Shown here in pieces: positions 11,320-31,558 of a DNA stretch of 64,000 nucleotides; the first letter of the stretch is position 1; each line of letters opens with the position of its first letter. This DNA is from Candidatus Levybacteria bacterium RIFCSPLOWO2_01_FULL_38_21 (GTDB lineage Bacteria; Patescibacteriota; Microgenomatia; Levybacterales; UBA12049): contig MFOT01000024.1 in the NCBI GenBank assembly GCA_001782475.1, positions 42,578 through 106,577 on the forward strand, given 5' to 3'. The notes under the pieces are model-generated. The model searched no databases. It worked only from the letters and a program-made list of their open reading frames with translations, and was not told the DNA's origin. The position numbers and the translations under genes were made by a program.

Positions 11320-11321
11320 TT

Positions 11322-11385: not shown

Positions 11386-12408
11386 ATTAAGATAAGTGAT
11401 TTCTTCCTCTAGTTCCAGCTTGTATTTTTCTTTTATAATCTCTTTTATTTCTCCAATTAAACTTCTTACATCTTCCGATGTCGCGTTGCCAAGATTGACA
11501 ATAAAATTAGGATGCTTTTCGGAGACCATTGCGCCTCCTTGTCTTTTCCCTTTTAAACCTGCTACTGCTAAAAGTTTAGCTGTTGGCAAAATAGGAAAAG
11601 GATCATCTTTTATCGAACTACTTAGTCCTCCTAATAATTTTTGGGGAACTTTTTCGATTGGGATGTTTTTGAAAATACTTCCTATATTTGGGTATTCTAG
11701 AGGATGTCTTTCTTTCCGATAATTGATCTTTTTCTCGATCTGTCTTTTAATTAAATCTTTATTGCCCCCTTGAAGTTTTAATTCCACTGAGATTATAATT
11801 TCACTTTTCCCCTCCCCGTCTTTAAAAATACTTGATCTATACCCAAAATTGCACTCTGAGTTTTTTCTTTTTCTAACCTCGTAGGTTGCGAGATTACCAA
11901 CCTCGTAGGTTGAGAGACTTTCGACTTCGTAAGCACTATCTTTTATTTCCCCTTTAAATGCTCCAGCATTCCCCCTGACAGCGCCGCCGATTGTGCCAGG
12001 AAGACCTCCTGCCCACTCAAGTCCGGATAGACAATTTTGAACACAAAAATTGAGCAAATCCTCCAATAAAACACCGGCGCCGGCTAAAATCTTAATATTG
12101 CCAGCCTCGCCAACCTCGCAGGTTTCGTGCGTGCAACCTGCGAGGTTACAATAACCCAATATCCTGATCTCTTTTATTTTATTGTGAATAACAAGTCCAT
12201 TAAATCCTTTATCGCTTACTAAGACATTCGTCCCCCCACCGAAGATAAACATATCCTGCGAAGGTGATTTTTTTGAGATTTTTTTCCATTGTTTAAGGCC
12301 TTCGATTAACTCCTCAACGCTTGAAACCTTAAGAAGATACTTGGCTCTGCCCCCGATTTTGAAATTGTTGAGGTCTTTTAAAGAGATATCTTTTTGAATC
12401 GAAACCAT
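11383..12408 (-). CDS. murB: UDP-N-acetylenolpyruvoylglucosamine reductase
   Basis: FAD-binding N-terminus (GGRAKYLL...FGGGTNVLV) and MurB C-terminal domain; contains in-frame palindromic insertions (YEVESLSTYEVGNLATYEV; CTHETCEVGEAG). Confidence 0.75.
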   Translation of the reverse strand: MVSIQKDISLKDLNNFKIGGRAKYLLKVSSVEELIEGLKQWKKISKKSPSQDMFIFGGGTNVLVSDKGFNGLVIHNKIKEIRILGYCNLAGCTHETCEVGEAGNIKILAGAGVLLEDLLNFCVQNCLSGLEWAGGLPGTIGGAVRGNAGAFKGEIKDSAYEVESLSTYEVGNLATYEVRKRKNSECNFGYRSSIFKDGEGKSEIIISVELKLQGGNKDLIKRQIEKKINYRKERHPLEYPNIGSIFKNIPIEKVPQKLLGGLSSSIKDDPFPILPTAKLLAVAGLKGKRQGGAMVSEKHPNFIVNLGNATSEDVRSLIGEIKEIIKEKYKLELEEEITYLN

Positions 12409-12411
12409 AAG

Positions 12412-13530: not shown

Positions 13531-13536
13531 GTGTGA

Positions 13537-19064: not shown

Positions 19065-19093
19065 CAAATGATTGTTGACAAAAGCTACGATAA
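19065..19093 (+). promoter_or_regulatory. strong sigma-70-like promoter (TTGACA, 17 nt, TACAAT)
   Basis: gTTGACAaaagctacgataattctTACAATcaag. Confidence 0.5.
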
Positions 19094-19157
19094 TTCTTAC
19101 AATCAAGTCAAGTTAATATCTTTTATCAATTGAGTTAAATTGCTGACCGCAAACGGA

Positions 19158-19205: not shown

Positions 19206-20456
19206 ATGAATTACAAAAAGATTTTATCTGAAAAAATTAAAACAAGAAAAGCTGTTGTTGGCATTATTGGAATTGGGTACGTCGGTGGAGCACTTGCTCA
19301 AGGAGCTGCTACTGCAGGATTTCGGGTTTTTGGATTCACCAGAAGTACGACCCGCGCTAATCATGTTAACAAACAAAAAATCCATAATTATACCGCTACT
19401 ACCGACATTACTCTACTCTCAAAATGCAGTATCATTTGTATCTGTGTTCCTACTCCGATACACGAGAACAAGTCACCCGATCTTGAACCTCTTCAGGACG
19501 CGCTTTCGAAGACAGCCGAATATTTAAAACCCGGATCACTTGTTATTATCGAGAGCACCGTAGCACCCGGTACCACCCGAAATATTGCTCTTCCAATGCT
19601 TCAGACGTCAGGGTTAAAAAAAGAAGAAGAAGAGTTTTTTCTATCTTTTTCTCCTGAGCGAGTCGATCCGGGAAATAAAAAATATACTATATGTAATACT
19701 CCAAAAGTAGTAGCCGGTTTAAGCAACACATCCAGTGATCTTGCCTGTAAGTTTTTTCAGAGTTTTGTTGAAAAGGTAGTCCCCGTTTCCTCTATTGAGG
19801 CAGCCGAAATGTCCAAGATTCTTGAGAATACGTTCCGACTTGTCAATATAAGCTTTATTAATGAACTTGTTCCATACGCAAAAAGTCTGGGTGTTGATAT
19901 ACATGAAGTGATAAATGTGGCAGCCACAAAACCATATGGATTTCTGCCGCATTATCCCGGTCCTGGGGTTGGCGGACACTGTATCCCAGTTGATCCATAT
20001 TACCTGCTTTCGGATGCGCGAAAACGGGGAATCTCACTTACCATAGTTGAAGACGCAGGTAGAGTGAATGAAGAACAACCAAAAAAAGTAGTCACCAAAG
20101 CTCTTGAGATTTTGAAAAAAACAAACGGACACAAGGCAACTTACAAGGTTTTGCTTCTCGGGCTTACATATAAAAAAGACATCGGCGATCAACGCGAATC
20201 AGCATCGCTTAAAATTTGGAAACTCTTGGAAGAAAAGAATGTCAATGTTTCTTACCACGACCCATATGTACCTTCATGGAACGACCACGTATCTGTGGAG
20301 CTGACCGATAAAACGCTTTCTGAAAATGACGTTATTATTATCACGACAGACCATGAGAATATCGACTATGCAAAACTTACCTCGCATCAAAAGCCTATCC
20401 TTGATACACGTAATGTACTGCGCAAAAACGGTTTTCCGTTTGTGTATGGAATATGA
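19206..20456 (+). CDS. nucleotide-sugar dehydrogenase (UDP-glucose / UDP-ManNAc dehydrogenase family)
   Basis: VVGIIGIGYVGGALA Rossmann motif; GPGVGGHCIPVDPYYL holds the catalytic Cys. The ORF-track start at 19140 lies inside the leader; 19206 is the more likely start. Confidence 0.75.
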   Translation: MNYKKILSEKIKTRKAVVGIIGIGYVGGALAQGAATAGFRVFGFTRSTTRANHVNKQKIHNYTATTDITLLSKCSIICICVPTPIHENKSPDLEPLQDALSKTAEYLKPGSLVIIESTVAPGTTRNIALPMLQTSGLKKEEEEFFLSFSPERVDPGNKKYTICNTPKVVAGLSNTSSDLACKFFQSFVEKVVPVSSIEAAEMSKILENTFRLVNISFINELVPYAKSLGVDIHEVINVAATKPYGFLPHYPGPGVGGHCIPVDPYYLLSDARKRGISLTIVEDAGRVNEEQPKKVVTKALEILKKTNGHKATYKVLLLGLTYKKDIGDQRESASLKIWKLLEEKNVNVSYHDPYVPSWNDHVSVELTDKTLSENDVIIITTDHENIDYAKLTSHQKPILDTRNVLRKNGFPFVYGI

Positions 20457-21394
20457 AACATGTTTTAGTAACAGGCGGCGCGGGTTTTATAGGCGCAAGT
20501 TTAGTTCGAAAGCTTCTTGAAAATGGCGATAAGGTTGTAGTAATTGATAATCTAATTACTTCAAACGGGGAAAGTATTAAACCGCTACTTAAAAATCCCA
20601 ATTTCAAATTTATCAAACGCGACATAATAAAACCTTTGCCTTCATCAATCATCAATCATCAATCATCAATTGGGCATATCTTCCATCTTGCCTGTCCGAC
20701 CGGCGTTCCGAATCTCACAAAACTTGCCAGAGAAATGCTACTTACCTCCGCGATCGGAACAATGAATGTTTTAGAACTTGCCAGAAAACACAAGGCAAAG
20801 TTTATATTCACAAGTTCTTCTGAAGTTTATGGTGATCCCAAAGTTTTTCCGCAGAACGAAAACTATACAGGCAATGTCAGCTCTGTAGGTATTAGAAGTC
20901 CATATGAAGAAGGAAAAAGATTTGCCGAAAGTCTGATTATGACTTACGTTCGAAAATATAATTTGGATGCAAGAATTGTCCGGGTGTTTAATACCTACGG
21001 ACCCCTGATGTCTATTAACGATACGCGCGTTATTCCAAAATTCTTAAAACAAATTAGTAAAAACCAGCCTCTGACAGTTCAAGGAGATGGCAGGCAAACA
21101 AGAACATTTTGTTACGTTGACGATCTAATAAAAGGTTTAGTTCTTCTTATGGACAAGGGGGGGGAGGGCGAAGTTTATAATCTCGGGAGTAACAAAGAAA
21201 TAAGTATAAATACCCTGGCTGGGCTCATGATAAAAATTACAAAATCTAAAAGTAAAACAATAAATATTAGTCGTCCGTCTCATGACCACAACCGCCGTCT
21301 CCCCGACCTGAGAAAAGCAAACAAACTTAATTGGTACACTAAGGTAGGCCTTGATGAAGGTTTAGAAAGGACCGTACGATGGTTTGGGTTTTAG
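20453..21394 (+). CDS. NAD-dependent epimerase/dehydratase (UDP-glucuronate decarboxylase/UXS-like)
   Basis: VLVTGGAGFIGASLVRKL ... PYEEGKRFAE (YxxxK). Contains an in-frame heptanucleotide tandem repeat encoding SSIINHQSSIG. Confidence 0.65.
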   Translation: MKHVLVTGGAGFIGASLVRKLLENGDKVVVIDNLITSNGESIKPLLKNPNFKFIKRDIIKPLPSSIINHQSSIGHIFHLACPTGVPNLTKLAREMLLTSAIGTMNVLELARKHKAKFIFTSSSEVYGDPKVFPQNENYTGNVSSVGIRSPYEEGKRFAESLIMTYVRKYNLDARIVRVFNTYGPLMSINDTRVIPKFLKQISKNQPLTVQGDGRQTRTFCYVDDLIKGLVLLMDKGGEGEVYNLGSNKEISINTLAGLMIKITKSKSKTINISRPSHDHNRRLPDLRKANKLNWYTKVGLDEGLERTVRWFGF

Positions 21395-22602
21395 CGTTCC
21401 TTACGCTTGCAGGATATAATTTTTCTTTTTGGCTAATTGTAGGAATAGCTAGATTTTTGTTCGAGAGAATCCCGCATTCTGATAAAAGAAAGAGGGGTCG
21501 GCCGTCAAAACCAATTTTGCCAAAAGACGTTGCGGCAGTCATTCCCGCGCATAATGAACAACGAACGATCGCAAAAGCAATAAGATCTCTTAGGAAGATT
21601 TTACCTGTGGGAAATATTTATGTTGCTAGCGACTACTCAACCGATAAGACGGTTAAAATTGCCAGATCTTTTAAAGTCAAGGTTTTAGACATTAGACCAA
21701 ACAGAGGAAAAGCAAGAGCATTGGTTTACATAATGAAACGCTATCATCTATTAAGCCGCTTCAAAGCAATAATTATTCACGACGCGGACGTTGAGGTTAG
21801 TAAAGATTATTTGAAAAATGCATTGCCATTTTTAAAAGACCAAAACGTAGCGGCGGTAGCAACTCACGGAGTAACAAGACTTAAGAACTACAAAGTGCTT
21901 GAGAGATTTTATATTACTTATAGGTTGAGACTTTGGAGAATTCTACAATACGGAATGCGTTTTGGTCAGACATGGAAATACACCAATGTAACTTATATCA
22001 TCCCCGGCAGTTTATCTCTCTATAGAACGAGGGTTCTTAAGAAACTTAAAATTGATGCACCTGATCTTATTATTGAAGATTTTAATATGACTTTTGAGGT
22101 GCGCAGAAAAAAACTTGGAATAATTGCCTATAATCCATCAATTTTTGGAGTTCATCAGGACCCTTACACATTTAGAGATTATACTAAACAATTAAGACGC
22201 TGGAATTTAGGTTTTTGGCAGACAGTTAAGAAAAACGGCATTTGGCCAAGTCTTTTCTGGCTTTCTATGGGGTCTTTTCTCATAGAACTTCTTCTTTATA
22301 CGTTTTTCATATTGTCCGTGCCAATTTTAATATTTATTTTCATTCTTCATTCCTTCAATCCGATAAGCATTCCCCTTGTATCATCTTACTTAACATTCCT
22401 TGATCTTCTCATTGGACTATTCCTTATGGATTATGTCCTTACTATAATTGCAGCGGCTGCGGAGAGAAAACCTGAAATGCTTATTTATGGTCTTGGCTTT
22501 TTCTTTCTTCGCTATGTTGATGCTATCATCTATACATATACTCTGCCTTTGGCATTTCTGGTTAAATCGAAGGGCACGTGGAGCAGTCCGGAGAGAAAGT
22601 AA
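21379..22602 (+). CDS. processive family-2 glycosyltransferase (NodC/HasA/PgaC/CesA-like, QxxRW)
   Basis: D, DAD, IEDFNMT (ED) and QLRRW motifs; one N-terminal and about four C-terminal TM helices. Confidence 0.7.
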   Translation: MVWVLAFLTLAGYNFSFWLIVGIARFLFERIPHSDKRKRGRPSKPILPKDVAAVIPAHNEQRTIAKAIRSLRKILPVGNIYVASDYSTDKTVKIARSFKVKVLDIRPNRGKARALVYIMKRYHLLSRFKAIIIHDADVEVSKDYLKNALPFLKDQNVAAVATHGVTRLKNYKVLERFYITYRLRLWRILQYGMRFGQTWKYTNVTYIIPGSLSLYRTRVLKKLKIDAPDLIIEDFNMTFEVRRKKLGIIAYNPSIFGVHQDPYTFRDYTKQLRRWNLGFWQTVKKNGIWPSLFWLSMGSFLIELLLYTFFILSVPILIFIFILHSFNPISIPLVSSYLTFLDLLIGLFLMDYVLTIIAAAAERKPEMLIYGLGFFFLRYVDAIIYTYTLPLAFLVKSKGTWSSPERK

Positions 22603-23667
22603 TTAGAAAAGCAATTTAAGGGCTTTTGTAATGGTAGAAATCTCATCTTCAGTTAAGCTTGGGTGGATAGGAAGAGCAAGGGTCGTATTTGATATATCCT
22701 CTGCATTTGGAAAATCTTTCTTAGGCAATTTCAGGTAACGATGTAAAAGCTGATAGTTTTCAATGGGAATGACTGTTGAGATTCCTTTTTTTGCAAGATT
22801 TAATTTAAACGAATCTCTGGTTTTTTTATCTTTGAATTTAATTATAAAGCGATAGTGATTTAAATTTTTATCCTCTTTTTTTGGCCAAAACTCAATTTCT
22901 TTTTGTTTTTTAAGCACAGGGGTGTATTTCGAAGCAATATATCTTCTTTTCTTAAATAAATTATCAATCCTTTTAAACTGCACATTGCCAATAGCGGCGG
23001 CAAAATCTGTCAGCTGATAATTATATCTTACTCTGTAATTCTTACGACGATCATAATGGATCAGATCTCTGACGATTTTGTAATATTTTTTATTATTAGT
23101 TACAAGCATTCCTCCATGACCCGTGGTTATTACTTTTGTTGCATAAAATGAGAAGATGGTTATGTCTCCGAATGATCCCAGAGGTTTACCTTTATAGAAA
23201 CCTCCAAGAGAGTGCGCACAGTCTTCGACTATCAGAAGTTTAAATTTCTTGATCTCATCGATTTTTGCCGGAAATCCAAGAACATGAGGAACAATAATTG
23301 CTTTTGTTTTCTTATTAATTTTTTTCTTAATCTCCAGAGGATCAATTGTGAACCAATTTTTTTCAATATCTACGACTACAGGAGCAGCACCCATATAATA
23401 TATTGCGTTAAGAAGTGCAGTACAGACATAAGTTGGAACTATAACCTCATCTCCTTTTTCAACCCCGAGTGCGATTAGACTTAGATGAAGAGCGGCAGAA
23501 CCTGAACTTGTCGCAACGGCATATTTTCCTTTGACATAATTTTTAATATTGTTCTCAAGTTTCCTAGCTTCCTTATTTGGTATAAGCCACTTACTCCTCA
23601 GAGTCCTTGCAACTGCTTTTATTTCTTGCTCATCAAGGTAAGGCGTATTATGTAAAATCTGTTTCAT
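22603..23667 (-). CDS. DegT/DnrJ/EryC1/StrS-family PLP-dependent sugar aminotransferase
   Basis: KYAVATSSGSAALHLSLIALGV...DEVIVPTYVC...; the PLP lysine region is conserved. Confidence 0.8.
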   Translation of the reverse strand: MKQILHNTPYLDEQEIKAVARTLRSKWLIPNKEARKLENNIKNYVKGKYAVATSSGSAALHLSLIALGVEKGDEVIVPTYVCTALLNAIYYMGAAPVVVDIEKNWFTIDPLEIKKKINKKTKAIIVPHVLGFPAKIDEIKKFKLLIVEDCAHSLGGFYKGKPLGSFGDITIFSFYATKVITTGHGGMLVTNNKKYYKIVRDLIHYDRRKNYRVRYNYQLTDFAAAIGNVQFKRIDNLFKKRRYIASKYTPVLKKQKEIEFWPKKEDKNLNHYRFIIKFKDKKTRDSFKLNLAKKGISTVIPIENYQLLHRYLKLPKKDFPNAEDISNTTLALPIHPSLTEDEISTITKALKLLF

Positions 23668-23671
23668 AAAA

Positions 23672-25015
23672 CTAATGCTTCATTCCTCCGCTTAGAAAAA
23701 GAAGTGCATTTAATCGCATGCCTTCATTGGTAGAATAATCAGGGCTTCTTAGTGTAATTGTATTTTCCAAAAGATGTTTTTGATATCCTGGTTTAGTGGA
23801 GATAACCGCCGCCATTGCTGCTGTGGCGACAAAGGCTACCTCGACGTATTCAGTTTCCAGTGGGGTACCGGTTTTAGGATCATAACCTCCTCGGATTTGA
23901 TCTGGATTTTCTGTCTCAAAAAATGCATTAATCTGCTGTAGTTGAGCTATCGCGTCTTTATCTTCATACCATAGCGCTGCCATCCCTTGTCTCCATGGGA
24001 TACGAATTGCTTCATATCCGAATTTATCGTTGTTCCCTCCTCTTTGAGGCACCATACTTCCATCTGCAGTTGTCCAATCTGGCGGCAGAAGAGTTTGGCG
24101 TTTTGCTTTGATTGCAGCAAAAACTTGCCGTCCGGCCTCTGTGACGCGATCCCAATCGGTATTTCCTGTGTACTCTTTAAACAACTGATAATATGCAGGG
24201 GAATAGTATGAAGGGTTTGTTTCATAAAATCCTCCCCAATCATTCCCGCCTTTTAAAACATATGACCCCGGCTCAACGTCATGCTTTAAAATATTTTCAA
24301 TCATTCTCGTTGCGTCATCTCTGTATCCACCCCATATGTTATCAGCAATAATAAGTCCATAAGCTATATCCAGATCAGCGTCTGCTGCGGAACTATCATC
24401 AGCCGGAGTATTATCTGCATTTATTTCATTGCTCATAAGCCCATCCGAATTTAAATGAGACTTGGCATATTTCCATAACGAGTCAAATGTAGGCTTATCT
24501 TCAGCATTAACTGCGTATATCATACTGTATGCAACAACTTCTGAATTTGAATTTCTTTTATCTTTGTCCCATATCGCACGAAGTTCATCAGCGTCTCCTA
24601 ATCCCTCATTTCTAACCCAGGCGCTTTTCCATTCTTCGTATCCTTTTTGAAAAGCTTCTTTTGCAATTTGTCGTATTTCGGGATCAATTGAGATACCTTC
24701 TACTGGCGCTGTAGTAGTGGATTCTGTTACAGTTGGCGTTGTTGGGGGCCCTGCGGTGATAGTTGGTTCTGTTGTGGCTGACTCTGTTGTAATTGAGGTT
24801 GCTGTTGGATCTACTATTGGCTCCGCTGAAGGAATAACAGATACAGTGTCAACATTTCGCGTTGGGGCTGAACTACCTCCATTACTTGAAGAGCAAGCCT
24901 TCAGTGCTAAATCCAAGCCAGCGATCCCTGTTAATTTAAAAGCTCCTCTTCTAGAAATAACTGGACCATTTAACAAATGATCTAATTTTTCTGCTAATCG
25001 TTCAATTCTATCCAT
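23672..25015 (-). CDS. Tat-lipoprotein glycoside hydrolase family 8 (endoglucanase / chitosanase / xylanase family)
   Basis: AADADLDIAYGLIIADNIWGG matches the GH8 signature ATDADxDIAyAL..A...WG; Tat signal plus lipobox (SRRGAFKLTGIAGLDLALKAC); PT-rich linker. Confidence 0.6.
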   Translation of the reverse strand: MDRIERLAEKLDHLLNGPVISRRGAFKLTGIAGLDLALKACSSSNGGSSAPTRNVDTVSVIPSAEPIVDPTATSITTESATTEPTITAGPPTTPTVTESTTTAPVEGISIDPEIRQIAKEAFQKGYEEWKSAWVRNEGLGDADELRAIWDKDKRNSNSEVVAYSMIYAVNAEDKPTFDSLWKYAKSHLNSDGLMSNEINADNTPADDSSAADADLDIAYGLIIADNIWGGYRDDATRMIENILKHDVEPGSYVLKGGNDWGGFYETNPSYYSPAYYQLFKEYTGNTDWDRVTEAGRQVFAAIKAKRQTLLPPDWTTADGSMVPQRGGNNDKFGYEAIRIPWRQGMAALWYEDKDAIAQLQQINAFFETENPDQIRGGYDPKTGTPLETEYVEVAFVATAAMAAVISTKPGYQKHLLENTITLRSPDYSTNEGMRLNALLFLSGGMKH

Positions 25016-25023
25016 AATTAAAA

Positions 25024-26160
25024 CTAATTCTTAAGCTTACCTACTTCTTCCCAGACTCTTGGGTCTTCTCCGCCCAATCTCCAGAAGGCAAGGCCTCCGA
25101 CTCTAAATTCCTTTGCCAAATCAAAACGGGCTGAAGCACTCTCTGAATTTTCGAACCATATTACATACTTTTGTCCACTTTGTAAATACTCAAGGTAAGG
25201 GCTTTTTGAAGGACTGTCCCATTTAGTCTCCGCTCCATTTTCTTGTGCGGTAGATAAAATATCGAAGAACTTAAGGTCGTCACTTATCCCTGCATAAGAT
25301 TTGTCTGATCCGACTCGCCATTTAACCCCATCAAGTCCTATGCCAAGAAAGACCTTCTCAGGCGGCACTCCTACTTCGCCAATTGCGTAACTTAGCACTC
25401 TTCTTATCCACCCAAATTCCCCGATTGAGCCGGGTTCTGAGAATAGTTCGTGCTGGGTATAGGTCATAAAATACATTTGATCTGCCGCTTTAGAAATCCG
25501 TAATAAATCCTGAGCATGTGCACCGTTGTTTTCCTGGGGGTCATTTTCTGAAGTCTTAGGGTGGATAGCAACTCCCAATACTTTCCCCTTTTTATGTAAG
25601 CTTTTCGAAAGTTCCTCAATAAATAGACTAAAGTTTTCCCTTTCTGATACCTTCAATGCTTCATAATCAATATCAATTCCATCTAAATTATTTTCATCTA
25701 CTAGAGTGAGCAAATCATTTATGTGCTTGACTCTTTTCTCTTGAGTTGAGATAACTCTGGCAACCCTGCTATCATCGAAACCCTCTCCTTCTCCATAGTC
25801 TACTAAATTCGCTACAACTGCCAACACTTTTACATTGTGCGCGTGAGCAAAATCTATTATTGATTTGTCGACAATTGTCGATTTATAAGTTCTGAGATTT
25901 CCGCTTGCATCGACTCTGTACCAAAAAAACGAAACAAAATCAAAAGCAGATGTGTTCTTTGAGAAACTCTCAAACGCAGCTTCCTGATCCCAAAAAGGAA
26001 TCCATCCAATAACCTTCGGGTTAAATCTTAAAACTTGCTGGCTTGGCACTTGTTTTTCTTTATAAAATTTATGTCTGTTGTATGACATAGCAATTAATAA
26101 CGCAGTCCAAACTAAAAAAAATACTGCGGAAAATAATAAAAACTTTCTAAATCGCATCAA
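25024..26160 (-). CDS. membrane-anchored glycoside hydrolase family 18 (chitinase-like)
   Basis: LDGIDIDYE matches the GH18 DxxDxDxE catalytic motif; N-terminal TM helix. Confidence 0.6.
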   Translation of the reverse strand: MMRFRKFLLFSAVFFLVWTALLIAMSYNRHKFYKEKQVPSQQVLRFNPKVIGWIPFWDQEAAFESFSKNTSAFDFVSFFWYRVDASGNLRTYKSTIVDKSIIDFAHAHNVKVLAVVANLVDYGEGEGFDDSRVARVISTQEKRVKHINDLLTLVDENNLDGIDIDYEALKVSERENFSLFIEELSKSLHKKGKVLGVAIHPKTSENDPQENNGAHAQDLLRISKAADQMYFMTYTQHELFSEPGSIGEFGWIRRVLSYAIGEVGVPPEKVFLGIGLDGVKWRVGSDKSYAGISDDLKFFDILSTAQENGAETKWDSPSKSPYLEYLQSGQKYVIWFENSESASARFDLAKEFRVGGLAFWRLGGEDPRVWEEVGKLKN

Positions 26161-26797
26161 GTACCCACTTCTTTCCTTTGGTGAATAAATAGTGAATGCT
26201 TGAGTACGGGTACATTGCAGTTAAATTATTATTTACAAACTCATGATTTAAGCCTTGATTTTTTATTTCATTTAATCTTGTCTCATCCAAGTATTCTCTT
26301 GCTCCAACACCGGATAAATATATATCGCCTTTGTATTTCTTACATATGTTTATTAAAAGCTCATGTTTTATTCCCGAAACTTCCTCATCGATCACAACAG
26401 GTGTTTTTATGTTTAAAATGTCTCTGATCGTTAATATCATCTCAGCATTTAAATCTATAAGTCTCTTCCAATTTTTCTTGTAAACCGAAGTGATCTCTGA
26501 AATGTACTCCTTACCTTTGGATTTTCCATAAATCATCTCAAGCGTCTTTATGTGTTTTTTTCTCCAGTCAGCTTGGTTATTTATCAAAACATCCTTAACC
26601 TTTTGATTTTGCGACCCAAAAACCGGCACTGTAAGCCATATATCATTATTGAGTCCTTTTATTTTGTGTCTTTGCTGCCAACCTTCTTGCTTTTCAAATT
26701 GAAGATTACTAATTACGACAAAAAGGTCGGAAAGTCTCATTTTATTAAAGAATGCAAGATTAGGCAGAAAATTTGGCTGGTGAGCTGCTATTTTCAT
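26147..26797 (-). CDS. WbqC-like family protein
   Basis: MKIAAHQPNFLPNLAFFNKM is the characteristic WbqC N-terminus. Confidence 0.65.
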   Translation of the reverse strand: MKIAAHQPNFLPNLAFFNKMRLSDLFVVISNLQFEKQEGWQQRHKIKGLNNDIWLTVPVFGSQNQKVKDVLINNQADWRKKHIKTLEMIYGKSKGKEYISEITSVYKKNWKRLIDLNAEMILTIRDILNIKTPVVIDEEVSGIKHELLINICKKYKGDIYLSGVGAREYLDETRLNEIKNQGLNHEFVNNNLTAMYPYSSIHYLFTKGKKWVLDAI

Positions 26798-27540
26798 AAG
26801 CCGTGCGCGTATCTATGAATAAAAAAACCTTCTGAGAAATCGTTGCCGCTCTGTGTCCCTCGAAGTTTTGCTAAGGTTTTAAGTGCTTCTGGAGAACGTG
26901 GATTTGGGAAGTTTCGAAGCTGAGATCTGTATAACCTTATTGCTTTTGATTTATTCTCAATCTCCTTTTCGTTAAGTGGAATAAAGAAATTCGGTATGAG
27001 CTGTTCTCCGCTATTCCAAAAATCTACCAATTCCTCATATCCCAGAACAATTGACACAAAGTGTTTTACATCTTTTTCCGAAGGACGAAGGCCTGCATGC
27101 GCTGCGTAAGCTGCGACCCGATGATCTTGATTGTACGAGTGGAATGATGGAAAAGCAACGATTGAGGGTCGGACCCTCTCAAGAGAAACAATACCTCCCC
27201 GCTCTATCGTATCCATTATCGGAAGTTGTCCGAGTCTATCGAGCTTTAGATGATATTTATTTCCAGGGAATGCGATGGCGTAATTATCGTATTTTAGAAA
27301 TGCCGCAACTTTTTTTATTTCTTTTTTCCGCTCTGAGGTTTTTGAGACTCCGTTTTTTGAAAAATCTTGGGCATCGCCCAGCGTCAAGAACAAGACATAA
27401 ACTTTCCCGCCTTCTTTTTTAATTTTTTGAATGAGTCCGCCGCACCCAATGACCTCATCATCCGGATGCGGAGCAATTACTAACAATCTCTGCCCTTTAA
27501 AATCCATCATGTAAAAGGGCAGTATCGCATAGGATATCAT
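26794..27540 (-). CDS. PIG-L/LmbE-family N-acetylglucosaminyl deacetylase
   Basis: LVIAPHPDDEVIGCGG (AHPDDE motif). Confidence 0.75.
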   Translation of the reverse strand: MISYAILPFYMMDFKGQRLLVIAPHPDDEVIGCGGLIQKIKKEGGKVYVLFLTLGDAQDFSKNGVSKTSERKKEIKKVAAFLKYDNYAIAFPGNKYHLKLDRLGQLPIMDTIERGGIVSLERVRPSIVAFPSFHSYNQDHRVAAYAAHAGLRPSEKDVKHFVSIVLGYEELVDFWNSGEQLIPNFFIPLNEKEIENKSKAIRLYRSQLRNFPNPRSPEALKTLAKLRGTQSGNDFSEGFFIHRYAHGL

Positions 27541-27582: not shown

Positions 27583-28416
27583 TTATAATTTTTTCGCTAT
27601 CTTGTAGAGTCCGAATAAAACGGCAATAAGAAAAAGAATATTAATGACTATGTTTCCTCCAACTGCCTGATTTACGAAACCTCCGGCATTGGTAATCATT
27701 TTGGTAAATCCCTCAAGATTTTTCATTCCCAGATTGCCGGTTGCATTAAGGTATATAATAATACCTCCCGTTAAAAAGAAGATGATACTTGCTATTAAGT
27801 TACTCATAATTAGCGTTCTTTCCCTGCCAAGAAAGTGAAACTTAAGAACCGGTTTTCTAAGCACCATAAATCTATCCATCTTTCCCGAAAGAAAAACCGA
27901 AATGATAAGAAGAGGTGTTACCATCCCAAGAACATATAATGCGCCGATACCTAATGCGCCGAGAAAATTGGGTGAGAGAAAAGTAAGAGTCAGAATTCCA
28001 ATAAGAACCGGCGCGCAGCAGGCGCTTGTTATTCCGGAAAAAATACCCAAAGTGAAGATCGATAAAACATCTGTTTTCCCCGAAGCTCCTTGAGAAAGAT
28101 GCGGCATGGGAAGTTTAATATCAAGAAATGTTACTAGAGCTGTTGCAAGCATTACTAAACCGCCAATAAAGTAGATCGTATCATGATAGACAAACAAAGC
28201 CTTTGAAAGAAGAGCAACCCCTAGAACTGCAGGCATCATTACTATAAAGATGCCAAAGCCAAATACAAGCGTCATTAAAAGTACTTTTTCTTTTTCCTTA
28301 AATACACCACCAAGATAGGCAGGGAGAAGAAACGTTATGCAGCATGGAGCAAAAAGGGCAACAGTTCCTGCGGCAAATGCCGCGATAAGAGATGTCTGAA
28401 AAAGTGCATTTTCCAT
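27583..28416 (-). CDS. polytopic membrane protein with two vicinal-Cys motifs in TM helices (MerT/DsbD_2-like)
   Basis: FAPCCITFLLPAYLGG and TSACCAPVLIGIL each embed a Cys pair in a hydrophobic helix; about 7 TM segments. Confidence 0.4.
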   Translation of the reverse strand: MENALFQTSLIAAFAAGTVALFAPCCITFLLPAYLGGVFKEKEKVLLMTLVFGFGIFIVMMPAVLGVALLSKALFVYHDTIYFIGGLVMLATALVTFLDIKLPMPHLSQGASGKTDVLSIFTLGIFSGITSACCAPVLIGILTLTFLSPNFLGALGIGALYVLGMVTPLLIISVFLSGKMDRFMVLRKPVLKFHFLGRERTLIMSNLIASIIFFLTGGIIIYLNATGNLGMKNLEGFTKMITNAGGFVNQAVGGNIVINILFLIAVLFGLYKIAKKL

Positions 28417-29364
28417 TTATGCTCCGCACCCTCCCGGAGCAGCGAAACCTGGAATATTCTGTACTTGTTGGTGCACTTTTTGCATACCTTGCAAAGATGA
28501 ATACTCGGCTGCAAGAACTTTTTTTGCGTCAACGGTATTCCATTTTGCCCCTTGCTTATCAAGATATGCTGCAAGCTCAACGTATTGCTGAGGAAACCAG
28601 AATGAATTAAGCGCTAAAACGTCTTTGTATATTTGACGCTCAGACACACCTTGTTTTACCGCAAGCTCAATGTATCCTAAGGCTGCCATGCCGTGATTGC
28701 AGTCCGGAAATGATGTTGGATTACCACAACAAGGTCTATAAATATTCTGCGCTATTTTTTTAACAATTTCCTGTTGCTGTGGCGTTAGCTTAATAATCTC
28801 TTGCGATGAATAGAGTTGGCTGGTGGGTTTTGAGCCCAGATTCCATCCTCCGGTTGAAGCATAAGCCATGGGGTCTTTGTTTCCATACGTTTTCATTGCT
28901 CCCTCCGAAAGAATAGGATTTTTATTCACAAGTCCTAATGCCCATAATGTATTTACCATAAAACGTGAGTTTTTTTCACTAATCATCATGTGGTTACCAG
29001 ATGGATTATTAAGGTATTTCATCTGCTCTTTTGCAAAAGAATCCTGAGCAAACAACTCTGCGTATTTTACCTTATCTATTACGCCTGATGAAATAAGCTG
29101 TTTTCCAATATCGTTCCATTTTACCGAAAGTATATAGCCTTGTTGAGGCACTACCTGCTGCTTTAATATCTGCACAAATTCTTCGGGACTTTTTGTTTTT
29201 TGGTAAAGAGCAGCAATCTGGTTATTGAAGTTTCTTTTCATAAGATAGTATTCAAAAAGACCAACTGCCGCAGATGATTCGATTATCAATATTACTACCA
29301 GGTAAAGAGGGATTGCCTTATTAAGAACTGACTTTAACTTTTTTCTGGTCCTCTTACTTCTCAT
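28417..29364 (-). CDS. membrane-anchored extracytoplasmic protein with a Cys-rich motif
   Basis: N-terminal TM helix; RPCCGNPTSFPDCNHG; C-terminal GGCGA. Confidence 0.35.
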   Translation of the reverse strand: MRSKRTRKKLKSVLNKAIPLYLVVILIIESSAAVGLFEYYLMKRNFNNQIAALYQKTKSPEEFVQILKQQVVPQQGYILSVKWNDIGKQLISSGVIDKVKYAELFAQDSFAKEQMKYLNNPSGNHMMISEKNSRFMVNTLWALGLVNKNPILSEGAMKTYGNKDPMAYASTGGWNLGSKPTSQLYSSQEIIKLTPQQQEIVKKIAQNIYRPCCGNPTSFPDCNHGMAALGYIELAVKQGVSERQIYKDVLALNSFWFPQQYVELAAYLDKQGAKWNTVDAKKVLAAEYSSLQGMQKVHQQVQNIPGFAAPGGCGA

Positions 29365-29365
29365 A

Positions 29366-29866
29366 TTATTTAATAACTGTCCCTGTTAATGTAAAAGTTA
29401 ATTTTGAATTTCTGCTATCATTTGTTTCTATTAGAACAAATCTGTTGATTGGTCCAATTCCCTGCACTCCGTGAAAAGCCGGGTCAAAAATAGCAGTAAG
29501 CTTTGCTTTGTCTCCTGCAGGCACTTCCCCCACCCACGAAGAAATGCTATCCATGCCAAAGTCCGGACTATCCTCTTCGGCAATTGTTACGCGTGCCTTT
29601 GTGCAATGACATGATGTTTTTACATTAAAAACCTTAAGCACCCCGCTTCCTGCGTTTTTGATAGTAAAAGTTTTTGTTACATTTCCGCCGTTTATTGGTA
29701 CGTTGCCCAAGTCAAAGCTTGTTGGTTCTAAGGTATATGCTTTGGCGTCTTTTGAGGCACCTGCTTTCGGCGTATTATTTGTTGTTGAGCCTAGAACGAA
29801 TACACCGCCAAAAATAATAATAACCGTTATAACAATCACTAAGATGATCAACTTTTTTTCATTCAT
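29366..29866 (-). CDS. DUF1573-like membrane-anchored protein (CxC motif)
   Basis: N-terminal TM helix; KTFTIKNAGSGVLKVFNVKTSCHCTKARV resembles the DUF1573 beta-sandwich with a conserved SCgCT. Confidence 0.4.
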   Translation of the reverse strand: MNEKKLIILVIVITVIIIFGGVFVLGSTTNNTPKAGASKDAKAYTLEPTSFDLGNVPINGGNVTKTFTIKNAGSGVLKVFNVKTSCHCTKARVTIAEEDSPDFGMDSISSWVGEVPAGDKAKLTAIFDPAFHGVQGIGPINRFVLIETNDSRNSKLTFTLTGTVIK

Positions 29867-30144
29867 ACACTTTTCCCATTATTTCTAAAGATTCGCATAA
29901 TCTCTTCTACCGATTGCTTGGTCTTTCCGCTTTTTATAAAATCGACAATACATCTTTTTAGGTGGTTTTGCAAAAGAAGATAGTCAACTTCTCTAAGTGC
30001 ACTTTGGACTGCCCGGGATTGGTTGATGATATCGATGCAGTATTGATCTTCCTTGATCATTTTTGTGACTTTCTCAAGATGCCCTCTTGTTATCTTTAAG
30101 CGATGGAGAATTCGTTCTTCTATATTTCTTGGTCTATATGCCAT
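29863..30144 (-). CDS. CsoR/RcnR/FrmR-family metal-sensing transcriptional repressor
   Basis: ILHRLKITRGHLEKVTKMIKEDQYCIDIINQSRAVQSALREVDYLLLQNHLKRC carries the C-H-C metal-ligand pattern; the start is probably the MAYRPRN Met. Confidence 0.65.
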   Translation of the reverse strand: MAYRPRNIEERILHRLKITRGHLEKVTKMIKEDQYCIDIINQSRAVQSALREVDYLLLQNHLKRCIVDFIKSGKTKQSVEEIMRIFRNNGKSV

Positions 30145-30226
30145 ACCTGTGCTGAGTATACCGAAGTATATCCCCCTCCTGGGGATATTATCACAAAAAT
30201 AAAAATACATTGCAAGTAGGAAAAGG

Positions 30227-31558
30227 CTATGTGGGCTGATTGCCGTTGTCACGCTTGTTTCTCCTAATTGCAAGCTCTTGTGCGCCAGTGGTTCTTATTG
30301 CTTTTGGATCTTCATCAAAATATGGACGGAGTTTTTCGGCTCGGGTGGGATCGCGGAGTTTTCCTAAGGCTTGTGCTTCAATTTGACGAATTCTTTCTCG
30401 AACTACATTAAACTCCCGACCAATCTCTTCCAGAGTTCTCCCTCTGCCATCCTCAAGGCCATAACGCAATATAAGAACTTTTTGCTCTTTCGGTGGTAGG
30501 GTTGCTAACGTTTCCATTAATGCTTTTTTACGTTCTGCCTCAAAGCTTTCTTCGTGAACGTCTGGTCCTCTATCTGGTATAAATTCGCCAAACTCGTCTA
30601 CTCCTTCGCCTACTGGTTCATTAAGTGAGACAATTTGTTGTGCTTTAATGGCAGCCAGAAGTACTGCCCCGCCTGCATCAAGCTCATCAGCCATGTCTTC
30701 AAGGCTTGGCTCGTAACCGAGCTCTTGAGCAAGCTGAGCTTTTACCTCCTTATACCGACGGAGCTTCTCTTTGGCGTGGGCAGGTATACGAATTGCTGAT
30801 CCATAATTAGCAATTCCCCTGATAATCGCTTGGCGAATCCACCAGACAGCATAAGTTGAAAATCTATACCTTGGTCGATTATCGTATTTTGCCGCAGCAA
30901 TCATAAGACCAATGTTACCGAAACTAATTAACTCGGGGAGCGATAAGCCCAGTCCTTGATATTTCTTAGCCCAAGAAACAGAAAGTCGCAAATTAGTATT
31001 AACCAAATCATTGTATGATTCAAGACCTTTGTACAGACGGTTAGTCTGCCGATCGATAAATTCCTGGAGAGTCCGTTCTCTTAGCTGGGTAGTCTCAATT
31101 TGCTCAATAGTCTCAAGCCTCTCTCTTACCTGGTCAACGTAACTTTCCGCAATTTTCACTAACTTGTTGTTAAAGTGGTCGAGAAGAAATCGGGCTTGTC
31201 GTGCTTGTAGTGATTGTTTATCTTCAAATAGGAAACTGATCTTTTCTTTCTGGGGTGGTGTTAGCAAGCTCGACTGGACTGTTTCCCTAAGAGCCAGAAG
31301 GGCCAGTTGACCAGCAAAAATTCGGCGAGCGCACCGCCATTGTTCCTCAGTTTCAAGTATCTTGAATTGACCAATCTCTTCTAGATAAAGACTGACCGGA
31401 TTGATATCTTCCCCATCATCCTCCGCATCTGGATGGTAATCAATCGCTCCAACTGCTTCTCCGAGTCGTCCAATTAGTGATTTTGGGCCGCTTAAAGTCT
31501 CGGGGACAATGTCCTTTGTAGGCAAAATATTTCCTCGCTCAACCCCAGCGCTCATCAT
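30227..31558 (-). CDS. rpoD: RNA polymerase sigma-70 factor
   Basis: Region 2 (YAVWWIRQAIIRGI) and region 4 (TLEEIGREFNVVRERIRQIEAQALGKLR). Confidence 0.85.
   Translation of the reverse strand: MMSAGVERGNILPTKDIVPETLSGPKSLIGRLGEAVGAIDYHPDAEDDGEDINPVSLYLEEIGQFKILETEEQWRCARRIFAGQLALLALRETVQSSLLTPPQKEKISFLFEDKQSLQARQARFLLDHFNNKLVKIAESYVDQVRERLETIEQIETTQLRERTLQEFIDRQTNRLYKGLESYNDLVNTNLRLSVSWAKKYQGLGLSLPELISFGNIGLMIAAAKYDNRPRYRFSTYAVWWIRQAIIRGIANYGSAIRIPAHAKEKLRRYKEVKAQLAQELGYEPSLEDMADELDAGGAVLLAAIKAQQIVSLNEPVGEGVDEFGEFIPDRGPDVHEESFEAERKKALMETLATLPPKEQKVLILRYGLEDGRGRTLEEIGREFNVVRERIRQIEAQALGKLRDPTRAEKLRPYFDEDPKAIRTTGAQELAIRRNKRDNGNQPT

Follow-up and report, generated by a model that had tools for sequence, protein, structure and literature searches.

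A conserved locus in a Levybacteria genome as a candidate system for the synthesis, modification and trimming of a cell-surface glycan with amino sugars

A region of eight genes (19206-27540) in the analysed window, a stretch of 64,000 nucleotides from Candidatus Levybacteria bacterium RIFCSPLOWO2_01_FULL_38_21 (contig MFOT01000024.1, positions 42,578 to 106,577), is read as a conserved, uncharacterised system to make, tailor and trim an amino-sugar cell-surface glycan, a reading to which we give a probability of roughly 0.55. The locus is akin to the PNAG and hyaluronan systems, yet it is no plain chitin or PNAG locus. All eight open reading frames listed in an earlier sequence-only reading proved to be real genes lying where that reading had placed them, and each exceeded its Pfam gathering score. 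They form two convergent operons, dehydrogenase-SDR-GT2 on the forward strand and PIG-L/WbqC/GH18/GH8/DegT on the reverse strand, in both of which neighbouring genes are 0-8 nt apart or overlap, with successive stop and start codons overlapping through the forward operon. The features are as follows.

19075..19103, + strand: promoter-like site TTGACA-17-TACAAT upstream of the dehydrogenase-SDR-GT2 operon; at 11/12, the region's best consensus match
19206..20456, + strand: nucleotide-sugar 6-dehydrogenase of the predicted UDP-N-acetylhexosamine dehydrogenase clade, with three UDPG_MGDP_dh domains
20453..21394, + strand: UXS-like SDR, predicted UDP-uronic-acid decarboxylase; start overlaps the dehydrogenase stop
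21379..22602, + strand: membrane-embedded synthase-type GT2; start overlaps the SDR stop
22603..23667, - strand: DegT/DnrJ/EryC1 PLP-dependent sugar aminotransferase, accessory within the module
23672..25015, - strand: exported, CelA-like GH8 hydrolase (GH8a), a rare accessory gene
25024..26160, - strand: membrane-anchored, extracytoplasmic GH18, a core gene, with DGIDIDYE complete
26147..26797, - strand: cytoplasmic WbqC-family protein, predicted nucleotide-dependent ligase, a core gene
26794..27540, - strand: cytoplasmic PIG-L/LmbE (CE14) de-N-acetylase, a core gene; from orthologue N-termini, a start at 27507 is likelier than one at 27540

The regional total of promoter-like sites was not above that in shuffles, so the site at 19075..19103 is weakly supported. 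The dehydrogenase ATG at 19206 fits the lengths of its orthologues (415-416 aa).

The grouping of these genes is not due to chance, as these families are found again beside GT2 orthologues at 84 loci from several phyla. This sample comprised 13 CPR, eight 'Gamma' MAG, six Rhizobiales and 57 Actinomycetota/other loci, and a gene counted as a partner if it lay no more than 6 kb from the GT2. The SDR was present at 9/13, 6/8, 6/6 and 51/57 of these, respectively, and the dehydrogenase at 5/13, 4/8, 6/6 and 16/57. GH18 was near GT2 at 9/13 CPR, 6/8 'Gamma' MAG and 29/57 Actinomycetota/other loci, PIG-L at 10/13, 5/8 and 21/57 and WbqC at 10/13, 4/8 and 21/57, and none of the three (0/6 each) was found at the Rhizobiales loci, which held the dehydrogenase, SDR and GT2 only. 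Loci of the L003 type carried GT2, GH18, WbqC and PIG-L with neither dehydrogenase nor SDR nearby, DegT occurred at some CPR-type loci only and GH8 at 2 of the 84 loci. The module is widely shared among CPR lineages, which speaks against its initial description as an unexpected capacity for a reduced genome. In Mesorhizobium the GT2 gene overlaps one for a Tat-exported protein that combines a CE4-like region with DUF3131 in a PgaB-like layout. Genes of GT-C and GtrA type were seen near related CPR loci.

By its sequence the GT2 is a synthase-type enzyme of IcaA/PgaC/HAS architecture, as had been proposed. It matched the Pfam models Glyco_trans_2_3 (70 bits) and Glycos_transf_2 (65 bits) and aligned with IcaA/PgaC over 96% of its length. 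One N-terminal TM is followed by the GT-A domain, a QLRRW interface helix and three C-terminal helices, and the motifs D85/D89, D135-A-D137, E233-D234 and Q271-L-R-R274-W275 were invariant in a family alignment of 30 sequences. With hhalign, PgaC matched at 98.8% in an alignment of 256 columns that takes in QxxRW and the first C-terminal TM, and ArnC aligned over just 95 columns at the N-terminus. Grouping with dolichol-phosphate-sugar transferases, named beforehand as the case against a synthase, was not seen, nor was grouping with undecaprenyl-phosphate ones, and the best whole-chain matches were true polymer synthases. Processivity and self-export are putative, since the enzyme has only about 1+3 TM-type helices and is structurally equidistant, PcManGT (a 'minimal cellulose-synthase-like' mannosyltransferase) being as close as BcsA.

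Model scores place the dehydrogenase in the HexNAc type. Its three UDPG_MGDP_dh domains gave 73-103 bits (Pfam) and TIGR03026 gave 362 bits (cut-off 190), WecC-type models scored 192-252 bits against 39 for the E. coli Ugd model, and no equivalog cut-off was reached among the NCBIfam-type models scored. The closest PDB entries were the UDP-ManNAc dehydrogenase 4r16 (5e-59) and Cap5O, and the catalytic Cys motif GGHCIP was present. The SDR (Pfam Epimerase, 178 bits) matched human UXS1 at 240.9 bits (1.6e-70), with epimerases as the next family at 138 bits, and carried the motifs SSSEVYGDP, YEEGKR and QTRTF, of which YEEGKR was retained in orthologues scoring at least 250 bits from CPR, 'Gammaproteobacteria' MAG and Rhizobiales loci. 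The dehydrogenase and the UXS-like decarboxylase accompany GT2 more widely than any other gene, and their translation is coupled to that of GT2. The sugar donor is therefore probably a HexNAc derivative that has been oxidised or decarboxylated rather than plain UDP-GlcNAc, which argues against the plain poly-GlcNAc or chitin-like product first suggested. The two enzymes would turn UDP-N-acetylhexosamine into a uronic acid and/or a 2-acetamido-pentose (UDP-XylNAc-like), and GT2 would assemble such donors, with or without UDP-GlcNAc, at the membrane into a beta-linked glycan with N-acetyl-amino sugars. A route from UDP-GlcNAc through UDP-GlcNAcA to UDP-XylNAc has been published (Gu et al. 2010, cited in PMC12407052). 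The donor may vary by lineage, since at L003-type loci both the dehydrogenase and the SDR are missing from the neighbourhood, and in actinobacteria the SDR near GT2 is of a more distant type.

PIG-L (Pfam 70.7 bits) had TT1542, diacetylchitobiose deacetylases and BshB as its closest PDB entries, and its orthologues carried PHPDDE (32/37) or PHADDE (the rest). WbqC (Pfam 155 bits; 216 aa) has a BshC/class I aaRS-like fold that also matches MshC, from which a ligation step is predicted; its likeness to BshC is confined to the fold, the identity being 10% and a sequence search giving no match. PIG-L lay within 1 kb of 31 of the 35 WbqC genes of GT2 loci, and the pair also occurred in a Wzx/GT4 cluster and beside another synthase-like GT2, while a GT4-WbqC-lmbE operon has been published for Streptomyces. 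DegT (Pfam 299 bits) was closest among NCBIfam models to the C4 aminotransferases LegC, PseC and ArnB (205-232 bits, all under cut-off), and its PDB matches included ArnB and perosamine synthase. Sequence prediction gave no export signal for PIG-L, WbqC, DegT, the dehydrogenase or the SDR, and for PIG-L neither a signal peptide nor a TM segment. As a cytoplasmic CE14 enzyme lacking an export signal and paired with a cytoplasmic WbqC, PIG-L therefore cannot act on an exported polymer like PgaB, IcaB and NodB-type CE4 enzymes, the role it had initially been given. The wider notion of a synthase, deacetylase and hydrolase toolkit holds in that the theme recurs and includes the Mesorhizobium PgaB-like protein, but the cytoplasmic PIG-L/WbqC pair departs from it.

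PIG-L would instead strip the N-acetyl group in the cytoplasm and WbqC would re-acylate the freed amine in a nucleotide-dependent reaction, probably with an amino acid or other carboxylate, while DegT would aminate a 4-keto intermediate to give another sugar amine. All three would work ahead of export, their substrate being a nucleotide-linked intermediate, a primer- or lipid-linked one, or a released oligomer. PIG-L enzymes are not known to take a UDP-sugar as substrate. A polymer extruded while being made would be beyond the reach of cytoplasmic enzymes.

Both hydrolases exceeded their Pfam cut-offs (GH18, 92.8 bits against 29.6; GH8, 137.5 against 24), the point on which these assignments had been staked. 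GH18 has the motif DGIDIDYE and, as an anchor, a hydrophobic stretch at its N-terminus (residues 7-25), and its orthologues kept xGxxxDYE in 36/45 and a hydrophobic N-terminal segment in 43/45. The family and anchor were thus as described, but in place of a chitinase the closest PDB entries were YdhD, YaaH/SleL and a cortical-lytic enzyme (3e-27 to 4e-22), which by sequence puts it in the YdhD/YaaH(SleL) clade acting on peptidoglycan rather than with classical chitinases. It is functionally linked to GT2, given that adjacency is kept in two gene orders and that the protein is nearly always exported. GH8 had been likened to chitosanases and BcsZ, but CelA was far closer (5e-50 against ~1e-8 and ~1e-5, respectively) and the gene is rare among the loci; the equivalents of CelA E95 and D152 are retained, and both this protein and its L002 orthologue have Glu in place of the base D278. 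Its N-terminus has a twin-arginine SRRGAFK followed by LKAC and a Thr/Pro-rich linker, so that of the suggested Tat-lipoprotein the Tat signal is plausible, but the lipobox is atypical and not conserved in the L002 orthologue. As dedicated hydrolases do in other synthase systems, the anchored GH18 may cut or trim the product outside the membrane, in the cell envelope, and the Tat-exported GH8 may add product trimming in this genome.

Of the known systems, PNAG synthesis (PgaABCD in E. coli; IcaADBC in staphylococci) contains the closest characterised relatives of GT2, IcaA/PgaC, which share its size, topology and D, DxD, ED and QxxRW motifs, and the theme of synthase, de-N-acetylase and glycoside hydrolase is common to both, down to the exported two-domain protein of Mesorhizobium. 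Unlike PNAG loci, however, the identity is just 22-25%, the PgaC_IcaA equivalog model gave 58 bits against a cut-off of 422, and the window holds no PgaD/IcaD, CE4 PgaB/IcaB or PgaA, the tightly packed locus leaving no space for a small PgaD- or IcaD-like partner. The deacetylase is of another kind (CE14, with WbqC), GH18 and GH8 stand in place of GH153 as hydrolases, and a dehydrogenase, decarboxylase and aminotransferase are added. In streptococcal hasABC the hasA synthase is in one operon with the nucleotide-sugar 6-dehydrogenase hasB, an arrangement that the locus shares and that by analogy would imply a uronic-acid-derived donor. Class I hyaluronan synthases are, however, only 14-17% identical to GT2, which has fewer TM helices; the dehydrogenase is not a UDP-glucose dehydrogenase and is followed by a UXS-like decarboxylase, and an alternating GlcA/GlcNAc product finds no support at the locus.

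A HexNAc dehydrogenase followed by a UXS-like decarboxylase also resembles the Bacillus cereus UDP-XylNAc route (UGlcNAcDH and UXNAcS; precedent cited in PMC12407052). The aminopentose routes (ArnA/ArnB; CalS8/CalS9/CalS13) likewise have a HexNAc/hexose-type dehydrogenase followed by a UXS-like decarboxylase, to which the module optionally adds DegT, and CalS8 and ArnB were among the PDB matches of the dehydrogenase and DegT searches; ArnA, ArnB and ArnC had no equivalog-level counterpart at the locus, and its GT2 is not ArnC-like. Cellulose (BcsA/BcsZ), Listeria Pss and B. subtilis YdaJ-N differ in that GH8 is rarely found with GT2, the locus has no BcsB, PilZ domain or c-di-GMP module, and its GH8 is of CelA rather than BcsZ type. 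In bacillithiol synthesis a GT adds GlcNAc, the PIG-L-family BshB frees the amine and BshC directly follows as the ligase adding an amino acid, although BshC activity has yet to be reconstituted in vitro (PMC4360819), and in mycothiol synthesis the PIG-L-family MshB is likewise directly followed by MshC (PMC9736012). The locus has the same logic of GT, deacetylase and class I aaRS-like Rossmann-fold ligase, PIG-L matching BshB1 and WbqC matching BshC/MshC by fold. Unlike BshA and MshA, its GT is a membrane GT2 synthase and not a soluble GT4, WbqC has neither the extra domains of BshC nor sequence-level homology to it, and the context would be an envelope glycan rather than a low-molecular-weight thiol. 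NodC, too, is a small GT2 of the membrane (1+3 TM-type helices) whose product is then cytoplasmically de-N-acetylated and N-re-acylated, and the likeness of the Nod factor core (NodC-NodB-NodA) to the locus is one of topology and pathway. NodB (CE4) and NodA (an acyltransferase) are unrelated to PIG-L/WbqC, and no NodIJ exporter is encoded.

This likeness bears on an alternative in which GT2 exports no polymer and instead either produces a short oligosaccharide in the cytoplasm, like NodC, or glycosylates a lipid or a lipid-linked acceptor, in the manner of PcManGT and the glycolipid synthases, after which PIG-L and WbqC deacetylate and re-acylate it to an N-acylated glucosamine envelope glycoconjugate. 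Such NodC-NodB-NodA or MshA-MshB-MshC logic would account for substrate access of the cytoplasmic pair, the PIG-L enzymes known so far all take small GlcNAc glycosides that a preceding glycosyltransferase step supplies, and the GT, WbqC and LmbE trio recurs with soluble GT4 enzymes. We consider it doubtful but credible, as the exported GH18, GH8 and Mesorhizobium PgaB-like protein imply a longer extracytoplasmic glycan, neither a NodIJ-like exporter nor a flippase is at the locus, and GT2 best resembles true polymer synthases over its whole chain. Polymerisation of plain UDP-GlcNAc to a chitin/PNAG-like homopolymer, part-deacetylated by PIG-L and trimmed by GH18/GH8, is unlikely. The full-length architecture match to IcaA/PgaC, the L003-type loci, the diacetylchitobiose deacetylases among PIG-L relatives and the intact motif of GH18, a family whose catalysis needs a 2-acetamido sugar, are consistent with it, but PIG-L is not an exported CE4 enzyme like PgaB/IcaB, the equivalog score is below cut-off, GH8 is rare and CelA-like, and WbqC, DegT, the dehydrogenase and the SDR are left with no role even though the last two are coupled to GT2.

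The locus might also be a mosaic, with dehydrogenase-SDR-GT2 making one glycan, PIG-L/WbqC/DegT serving another pathway such as nucleotide-sugar tailoring for S-layer or wall glycosylation, and GH18/GH8 acting as autolysins or scavengers of host peptidoglycan or cellulose. The three-gene Rhizobiales loci, the portable PIG-L/WbqC cassette that is also found in the Wzx/GT4 cluster, the peptidoglycan hydrolases and cellulase closest to GH18 and GH8, and the GT-C and GtrA-type genes near related loci would agree with this. It is nevertheless very unlikely, as the genes are closely packed in two operons and GH18, PIG-L and WbqC are repeatedly found by GT2, in varied orders and orientations, across CPR, Actinomycetota and other MAGs, the usual signature of functional coupling.

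The eight open reading frames of a locus that a sequence-only reading had proposed as a chitin- or poly-GlcNAc-like synthesis and remodelling locus were all found in place at window positions 19206-27540, and every family assignment was above its curated Pfam threshold. The locus was composed of two convergent operons:

19206-20456, plus strand: nucleotide-sugar dehydrogenase, plus-strand operon
20453-21394, plus strand: UXS-like SDR, plus-strand operon
21379-22602, plus strand: GT2 synthase, plus-strand operon
22603-23667, minus strand: DegT aminotransferase, minus-strand operon
23672-25015, minus strand: GH8 hydrolase, minus-strand operon
25024-26160, minus strand: GH18 hydrolase, minus-strand operon
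26147-26797, minus strand: WbqC, minus-strand operon
26794-27540 (true start probably 27507), minus strand: PIG-L deacetylase, minus-strand operon

Stop and start codons overlapped within the plus-strand operon, while the minus-strand genes overlapped or were separated by gaps of 4-8 nt. The GT2 stop codon (TAA, plus strand) and the DegT stop codon (minus strand) met at window 22600-22605 with zero bases between them, which leaves no room for a terminator between the operons. The GC content of the cluster (0.386) matched that of the window (0.39) and therefore does not suggest a recent transfer. A promoter and terminator scan of the region returned sites at chance level, and its sole noteworthy promoter-like site, an 11/12 consensus match, was located upstream of the dehydrogenase (19075..19103, plus strand). 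The N-termini of orthologues indicated that PIG-L probably starts at MDFKGQ (27507) rather than at 27540, in which case a promoter-like TTGAAA-17-TATCCT sequence with a TG extension (27559-27531, minus strand) is located just upstream of it.

The GT2 matched a protein of Candidatus Levybacteria bacterium RIFCSPLOWO2_01_FULL_38, from which the window derives, at 100% identity. More than 690 homologues of the GT2 were identified, mostly in lineages of the CPR (Patescibacteria). The neighbourhoods of four relatives shared a core of the GT2 followed by convergent GH18, WbqC and PIG-L genes, with the dehydrogenase, SDR, DegT and GH8 variable. A reference-genome scan added 80 loci for a total of 84, including loci from cultured Mesorhizobium, Chelativorans, Nocardiopsis, Arthrobacter, Rhodococcus, Mycobacterium, Saccharopolyspora and Lentzea, where the GT2 was 35-46% identical over its full length. 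The eight window proteins were searched against the ORFs of the 84 loci and matches within 6 kb of the GT2 were counted; phmmer matches to stop-to-stop ORFs were used, as ORF calling in the high-GC actinobacterial loci gave spurious long ORFs.

Table. Loci with a match to each window protein within 6 kb of the GT2, in the order CPR (n=13); "Gammaproteobacteria" metagenome-assembled genomes, MAGs (n=8); Rhizobiales (n=6); Actinomycetota/other (n=57)
SDR: 9/13; 6/8; 6/6; 51/57
Dehydrogenase: 5/13; 4/8; 6/6; 16/57
GH18: 9/13; 6/8; 0/6; 29/57
PIG-L: 10/13; 5/8; 0/6; 21/57
WbqC: 10/13; 4/8; 0/6; 21/57
DegT: 4/13; 2/8; 0/6; 0/57
GH8: 1/13; 0/8; 0/6; 0/57

Some loci had neither the dehydrogenase nor the SDR near the GT2, and GH8 was a rare accessory gene of the module, found at two loci in total with the window itself counted. 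The Pseudonocardiaceae carried SDR-GH18-GT2 on a single strand, an order that differs from the convergent CPR layout and thereby lends weight to the association of GH18 with GT2. On a plasmid of Mesorhizobium sp. AR02 (locus L091, 1275-4106) the GT2 overlapped a gene for a 943-aa protein with a Tat signal (MNITRRTALLGG), and a second Rhizobiales case was located at 11261-14071 of locus L010. This protein combined a weak DUF2334/CE4 (polysaccharide-deacetylase)-like region with DUF3131, a two-domain layout like that of PgaB, and the DUF3131 domain may be the cognate hydrolase. The theme of the family is therefore a synthase accompanied by enzymes that oxidise and decarboxylate sugar nucleotides, to which lineages add their own deacetylase and hydrolase solutions.

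Three of the loci labelled "uncultured Gammaproteobacteria" (L006, L007 and L021) had approximately 35% GC and the CPR gene order, with GT2 identities to the window of 53-54% for L006 and L007 and 42% for L021. These labels look doubtful and the contigs are possibly mis-binned CPR sequences. In the related CPR locus L002 (1-6684), genes for a second dehydrogenase, three SDRs, a GT2-GtrA fusion and a PMT_2 GT-C enzyme formed an Arn-like set for lipid-linked glycosylation beside or inside the module; in the CPR locus L001 (13575-15002) a PMT_2 GT-C enzyme took this place.

The catalytic motifs of the GT2, namely D85/D89, D135-A-D137, E233-D234 and Q271..R274-W275 (D, DxD, ED and QxxRW), were invariant in a 30-sequence family alignment. 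Its AlphaFold model (pLDDT 88.7, pTM 0.87) consisted of one N-terminal TM helix, a GT-A domain, a QLRRW interface helix and three long C-terminal helices, and the fold of the processive-synthase group extended over the whole chain, with the interface helix and with TM helices that pack against the GT domain. Chlorella virus and Xenopus hyaluronan synthases were the top Foldseek matches (E down to 5e-14, TM 0.62-0.68), followed by BcsA, PcManGT and chitin synthases. A comparison by hhalign with E. coli PgaC (98.8%, E 1.2e-16) extended over 256 columns through QxxRW into the first C-terminal TM, compared with 66.8% over 221 columns for E. coli BcsA, while E. coli ArnC reached 85.9% but over just 95 N-terminal columns. 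In tblastn against plasmids, IcaA/PgaC aligned across 96% of the length, with identities of 22-25%. Grouping with non-processive dolichol-phosphate sugar transferases, named in the sequence-only reading as the outcome that would overturn it, was not observed; over the catalytic domain and C-terminal TM hairpin, polyprenyl-phosphate sugar GT2 enzymes (ArnC/GtrB/DPMS) were not the closest. On the predicted structure the GT2 is a member of the synthase fold class. As PcManGT, a mannosyltransferase with a "minimal cellulose-synthase-like fold", was an equally good structural match, the assignment extends to fold class and not to processivity.

An Arn-like pathway (Ugd-ArnA-ArnB-ArnC-ArnD) was also considered for the GT2 and was ruled out as the likeness to ArnC was confined to the N-terminal GT-A half, although the chemistry of the dehydrogenase, UXS-like SDR and DegT may be analogous. 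A further motif, G399-x-W401-x-S403-P404-x-R406, was invariant in the family alignment at the extreme C-terminus of the GT2 (residues 399-406, window 22573-22602) and is perhaps analogous to the loops that gate or prime hyaluronan and chitin synthases.

At 362 bits, the dehydrogenase passed the subfamily model for nucleotide-sugar dehydrogenases. It scored higher against HexNAc-type models (WecC-type 192-252 bits, TviB 168), with no equivalog cut-off reached, than against those for UDP-glucose dehydrogenases (AglM 132, TuaD 107 and E. coli Ugd 39 bits). The PDB ranking agreed with the HexNAc type, headed by 4r16 (UDP-ManNAc/GlcNAc-type, 5e-59) and Cap5O in a clade that also holds the TDP-glucose dehydrogenase CalS8. 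The SDR scored 240.9 bits to human UXS1 versus at most 138 for other SDR families, and its SSSEVYGDP, YEEGKR and QTRTF motifs are presumably the UXS catalytic Ser/Thr-x-Glu, Tyr-x3-Lys and Arg. It is a predicted UXS-family decarboxylase, and the SDRs of the actinobacterial loci were of a more distant type without YEEGKR. In Bacillus cereus, UDP-2-acetamido-2-deoxyxylose is reached through a HexNAc dehydrogenase and then a UXS-type enzyme, a route that PMC12407052 cites from Gu et al. 2010. DegT resembled the C4 aminotransferases LegC, PseC, ArnB and perosamine synthase and could, by analogy with ArnB, capture a released 4-keto intermediate. The Sinorhizobium APS cluster (uxs1-uxe-apsS-apsE-apsH) was rejected as a homologue, with no Sinorhizobium among the 30 tblastn matches listed against plasmids or in the ten most frequent genera, and is at most an analogue.

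Both hydrolases were above their HMM thresholds, the check on which the sequence-only reading had staked its GH8 and GH18 assignments. GH18 scored 92.8 bits against a gathering threshold of 29.6 with a complete DGIDIDYE catalytic motif, so that its family and motif stood as read. Its best PDB matches, however, were the spore-cortex peptidoglycan hydrolases YdhD, YaaH/SleL and a cortical-lytic enzyme (3e-27 to 4e-22) and not classical ChiA/ChiB-like chitinases, which matched partially at 1e-9 or weaker, and Pfam detected no carbohydrate-binding module in it. The pattern xGxxxDYE was present in 36 of the 45 orthologues, the other nine falling outside the search pattern. The window protein had an N-terminal anchor, 43 of the 45 orthologues had a hydrophobic N-terminal segment and one had SLH domains, features that mark GH18 as a predicted conserved extracytoplasmic enzyme. 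Catalysis by GH18 requires a 2-acetamido group on the substrate and, given the conserved linkage of GH18 to GT2, this argues for a GT2 product containing a beta-linked N-acetyl-amino sugar. A MurB gene was located at window 11383-12408 (minus strand), which indicates that the organism makes peptidoglycan, and an additional action of the YdhD/SleL-type GH18 on the cell wall is a possibility.

The GH8 family assignment was also upheld (137.5 bits, gathering threshold 24), and within this family, which the sequence-only reading described as including chitosanases and BcsZ-like endoglucanases, the closest relative was the C. thermocellum cellulase CelA (5e-50), with xylanases and Rex enzymes at approximately 1e-12, chitosanases at approximately 1e-8 and BcsZ at approximately 1e-5. 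The acid Glu (CelA E95) and the Asp (D152) were kept in the CelA alignment ("SEvvaY" and "DADlDIA"), while the base position (CelA D278) was Glu ("fgyEAiR"), a conservative change, in the window and in the sole orthologue (L002). Both copies had a twin-arginine N-terminus.

PIG-L, assigned to the PIG-L/LmbE (CE14) deacetylases, scored 70.7 bits (gathering threshold 28.2) and its metal-site motif was PHPDDE in 32 and PHADDE in 5 of 37 orthologues. Its nearest solved relatives were TT1542, the archaeal diacetylchitobiose deacetylases and BshB, and no equivalog cut-off (BshB, MshB) was reached. WbqC had the class I aaRS-like (HUP) Rossmann fold of BshC/MshC-type ligases, without the canonical nucleotide-binding motifs HIGH and KMSKS; an invariant "HQPN" that follows strand 1, and "SGxGAxxY", are positional analogues only. 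Neither the protein nor its profile had a PDB match at E up to 10, and a sequence-level link to BshC was dropped in favour of the fold-level evidence. PIG-L was within 1 kb of WbqC for 31 of the 35 WbqC genes in the 84 loci. Three more distant WbqC homologues each directly followed a PIG-L gene, one in a Wzx/GT4 glycan cluster and another adjoining a different synthase-like GT2, so the pair is a tight and portable cassette that also occurs in O-antigen-type clusters.

BshC and MshC attach cysteine to the amine of glucosamine once the PIG-L-family enzymes BshB and MshB have freed it (PMC4360819; PMC9736012), although the BshC reaction has never been reconstituted in vitro (PMC4360819). On this precedent, the WbqC fold and the synteny with PIG-L, we predict a "deacetylate, then ligate" cassette that swaps the N-acetyl of an amino sugar for another acyl group, probably an aminoacyl. 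The literature found gives no function for WbqC and still describes the family as uncharacterised. The one informative item was a figure of Streptomyces and Kitasatospora tRNA-ProX operons, where GT4-WbqC-lmbE precedes murG and is flanked by a ProRS paralogue and by an unusual tRNA-Pro with a mutant anticodon (PMC10404621, Fig. 2). This context and the aaRS-like fold raise the question of whether some WbqC proteins use aminoacyl-tRNA or work together with a dedicated synthetase.

These results are best accounted for by a synthase-dependent envelope glycan system with UDP-HexNAc-derived donors, cytoplasmic tailoring and extracytoplasmic cleavage, to which we assign a probability of roughly 55%. 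A UDP-HexNAc would be oxidised by the dehydrogenase and then decarboxylated by the SDR, and the GT2 would build the glycan from such donors. PIG-L/WbqC and DegT would tailor amino groups in the cytoplasm, with a UDP-sugar, a primer or lipid-linked intermediate, or a released oligomer as candidate substrates of the cassette, and GH18, joined by GH8 in the window organism, would cleave the product outside the membrane. The system has a working likeness to the PNAG, hyaluronan and cellulose synthase systems and resembles the bacillithiol and mycothiol pathways in its tailoring cassette, and it was a member of none of the curated equivalog families tested.

The main flaw of the plain chitin or PNAG model of the sequence-only reading was PIG-L as the enzyme trimming an exported polymer. 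No signal peptide or TM segment was detected in PIG-L, WbqC, DegT, the dehydrogenase or the SDR, so PIG-L cannot have this role. The GT2 scored 58.2 bits against a cut-off of 422.3 in the PgaC/IcaA equivalog TIGR03937 despite a full-length alignment (16-406 versus 13-406 of 407) and is therefore not a PgaC/IcaA orthologue. No gene for a PgaD/IcaD-like small membrane subunit was present in the locus, where genes overlap or are 0-8 nt apart and leave no room for a small ORF, and no protein of the locus had a CE4 domain of the PgaB/IcaB type. We consider this model quite improbable. It is unlikely, to a somewhat lesser degree, that the GT2 is a non-exporting, NodC/Nod-factor-like or PcManGT-like enzyme whose product is deacetylated and re-acylated in the cytoplasm; the structural match to PcManGT and the predicted location of PIG-L and WbqC are consistent with this, and the conserved, putatively extracytoplasmic GH18 points the other way. 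A mosaic of unrelated modules is very unlikely, and the recurrence of the GT2, GH18, WbqC and PIG-L core speaks against it.

A bolder form of the envelope glycan reading is a long shot. Here the locus would make an undescribed glycan class, a beta-linked polymer or oligomer that the synthase assembles from oxidised or decarboxylated HexNAc and that is aminoacyl-swapped by PIG-L/WbqC. Its units would be HexNAcA and/or 2-acetamido-2-deoxy-pentose, a "chitin without C6", with acetyl replaced by aminoacyl only in part. WbqC (PF08889), which as yet has no function assigned, would be a relative of BshC and the founder of a sugar-amine ligase family, and the glycan would be a widespread CPR envelope component, common also to the actinobacterial and rhizobial relatives.

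No publication was found on such a synthase system in CPR or elsewhere. CPR bacteria live attached to other cells and their envelopes are, to our knowledge, biochemically almost unknown, which makes a conserved surface-glycan system a concrete candidate for a part in the structure of the envelope or in contact with hosts. The WbqC Pfam family gains a testable predicted function as the ligase partner of the PIG-L deacetylase. The system is widespread, uncharacterised and open to experiment, and the presence of the GT2 family in culturable Nocardiopsis, Arthrobacter, Rhodococcus, Mycobacterium and Mesorhizobium makes genetic and biochemical study possible without CPR cultivation.

Other regions of the window included a gene at 6912-10904 (plus strand) for a 1330-aa protein with SdrD B-like/SpaA prealbumin-fold repeats, which has the look of a large protein of the surface or adhesin type; as a candidate for host attachment it is more direct than the glycan locus. 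Directly upstream of PIG-L, the region 27583-30273 (minus strand) encoded two proteins that had no Pfam match, one multi-TM with a CC motif (277 aa) and one Cys-rich (315 aa), as well as a DUF1573 protein and a metal-sensing repressor of the CsoR-like type. These genes possibly form a metal or thiol-disulfide operon, and were placed outside the module as they were not conserved beside it in the related loci L001-L004.
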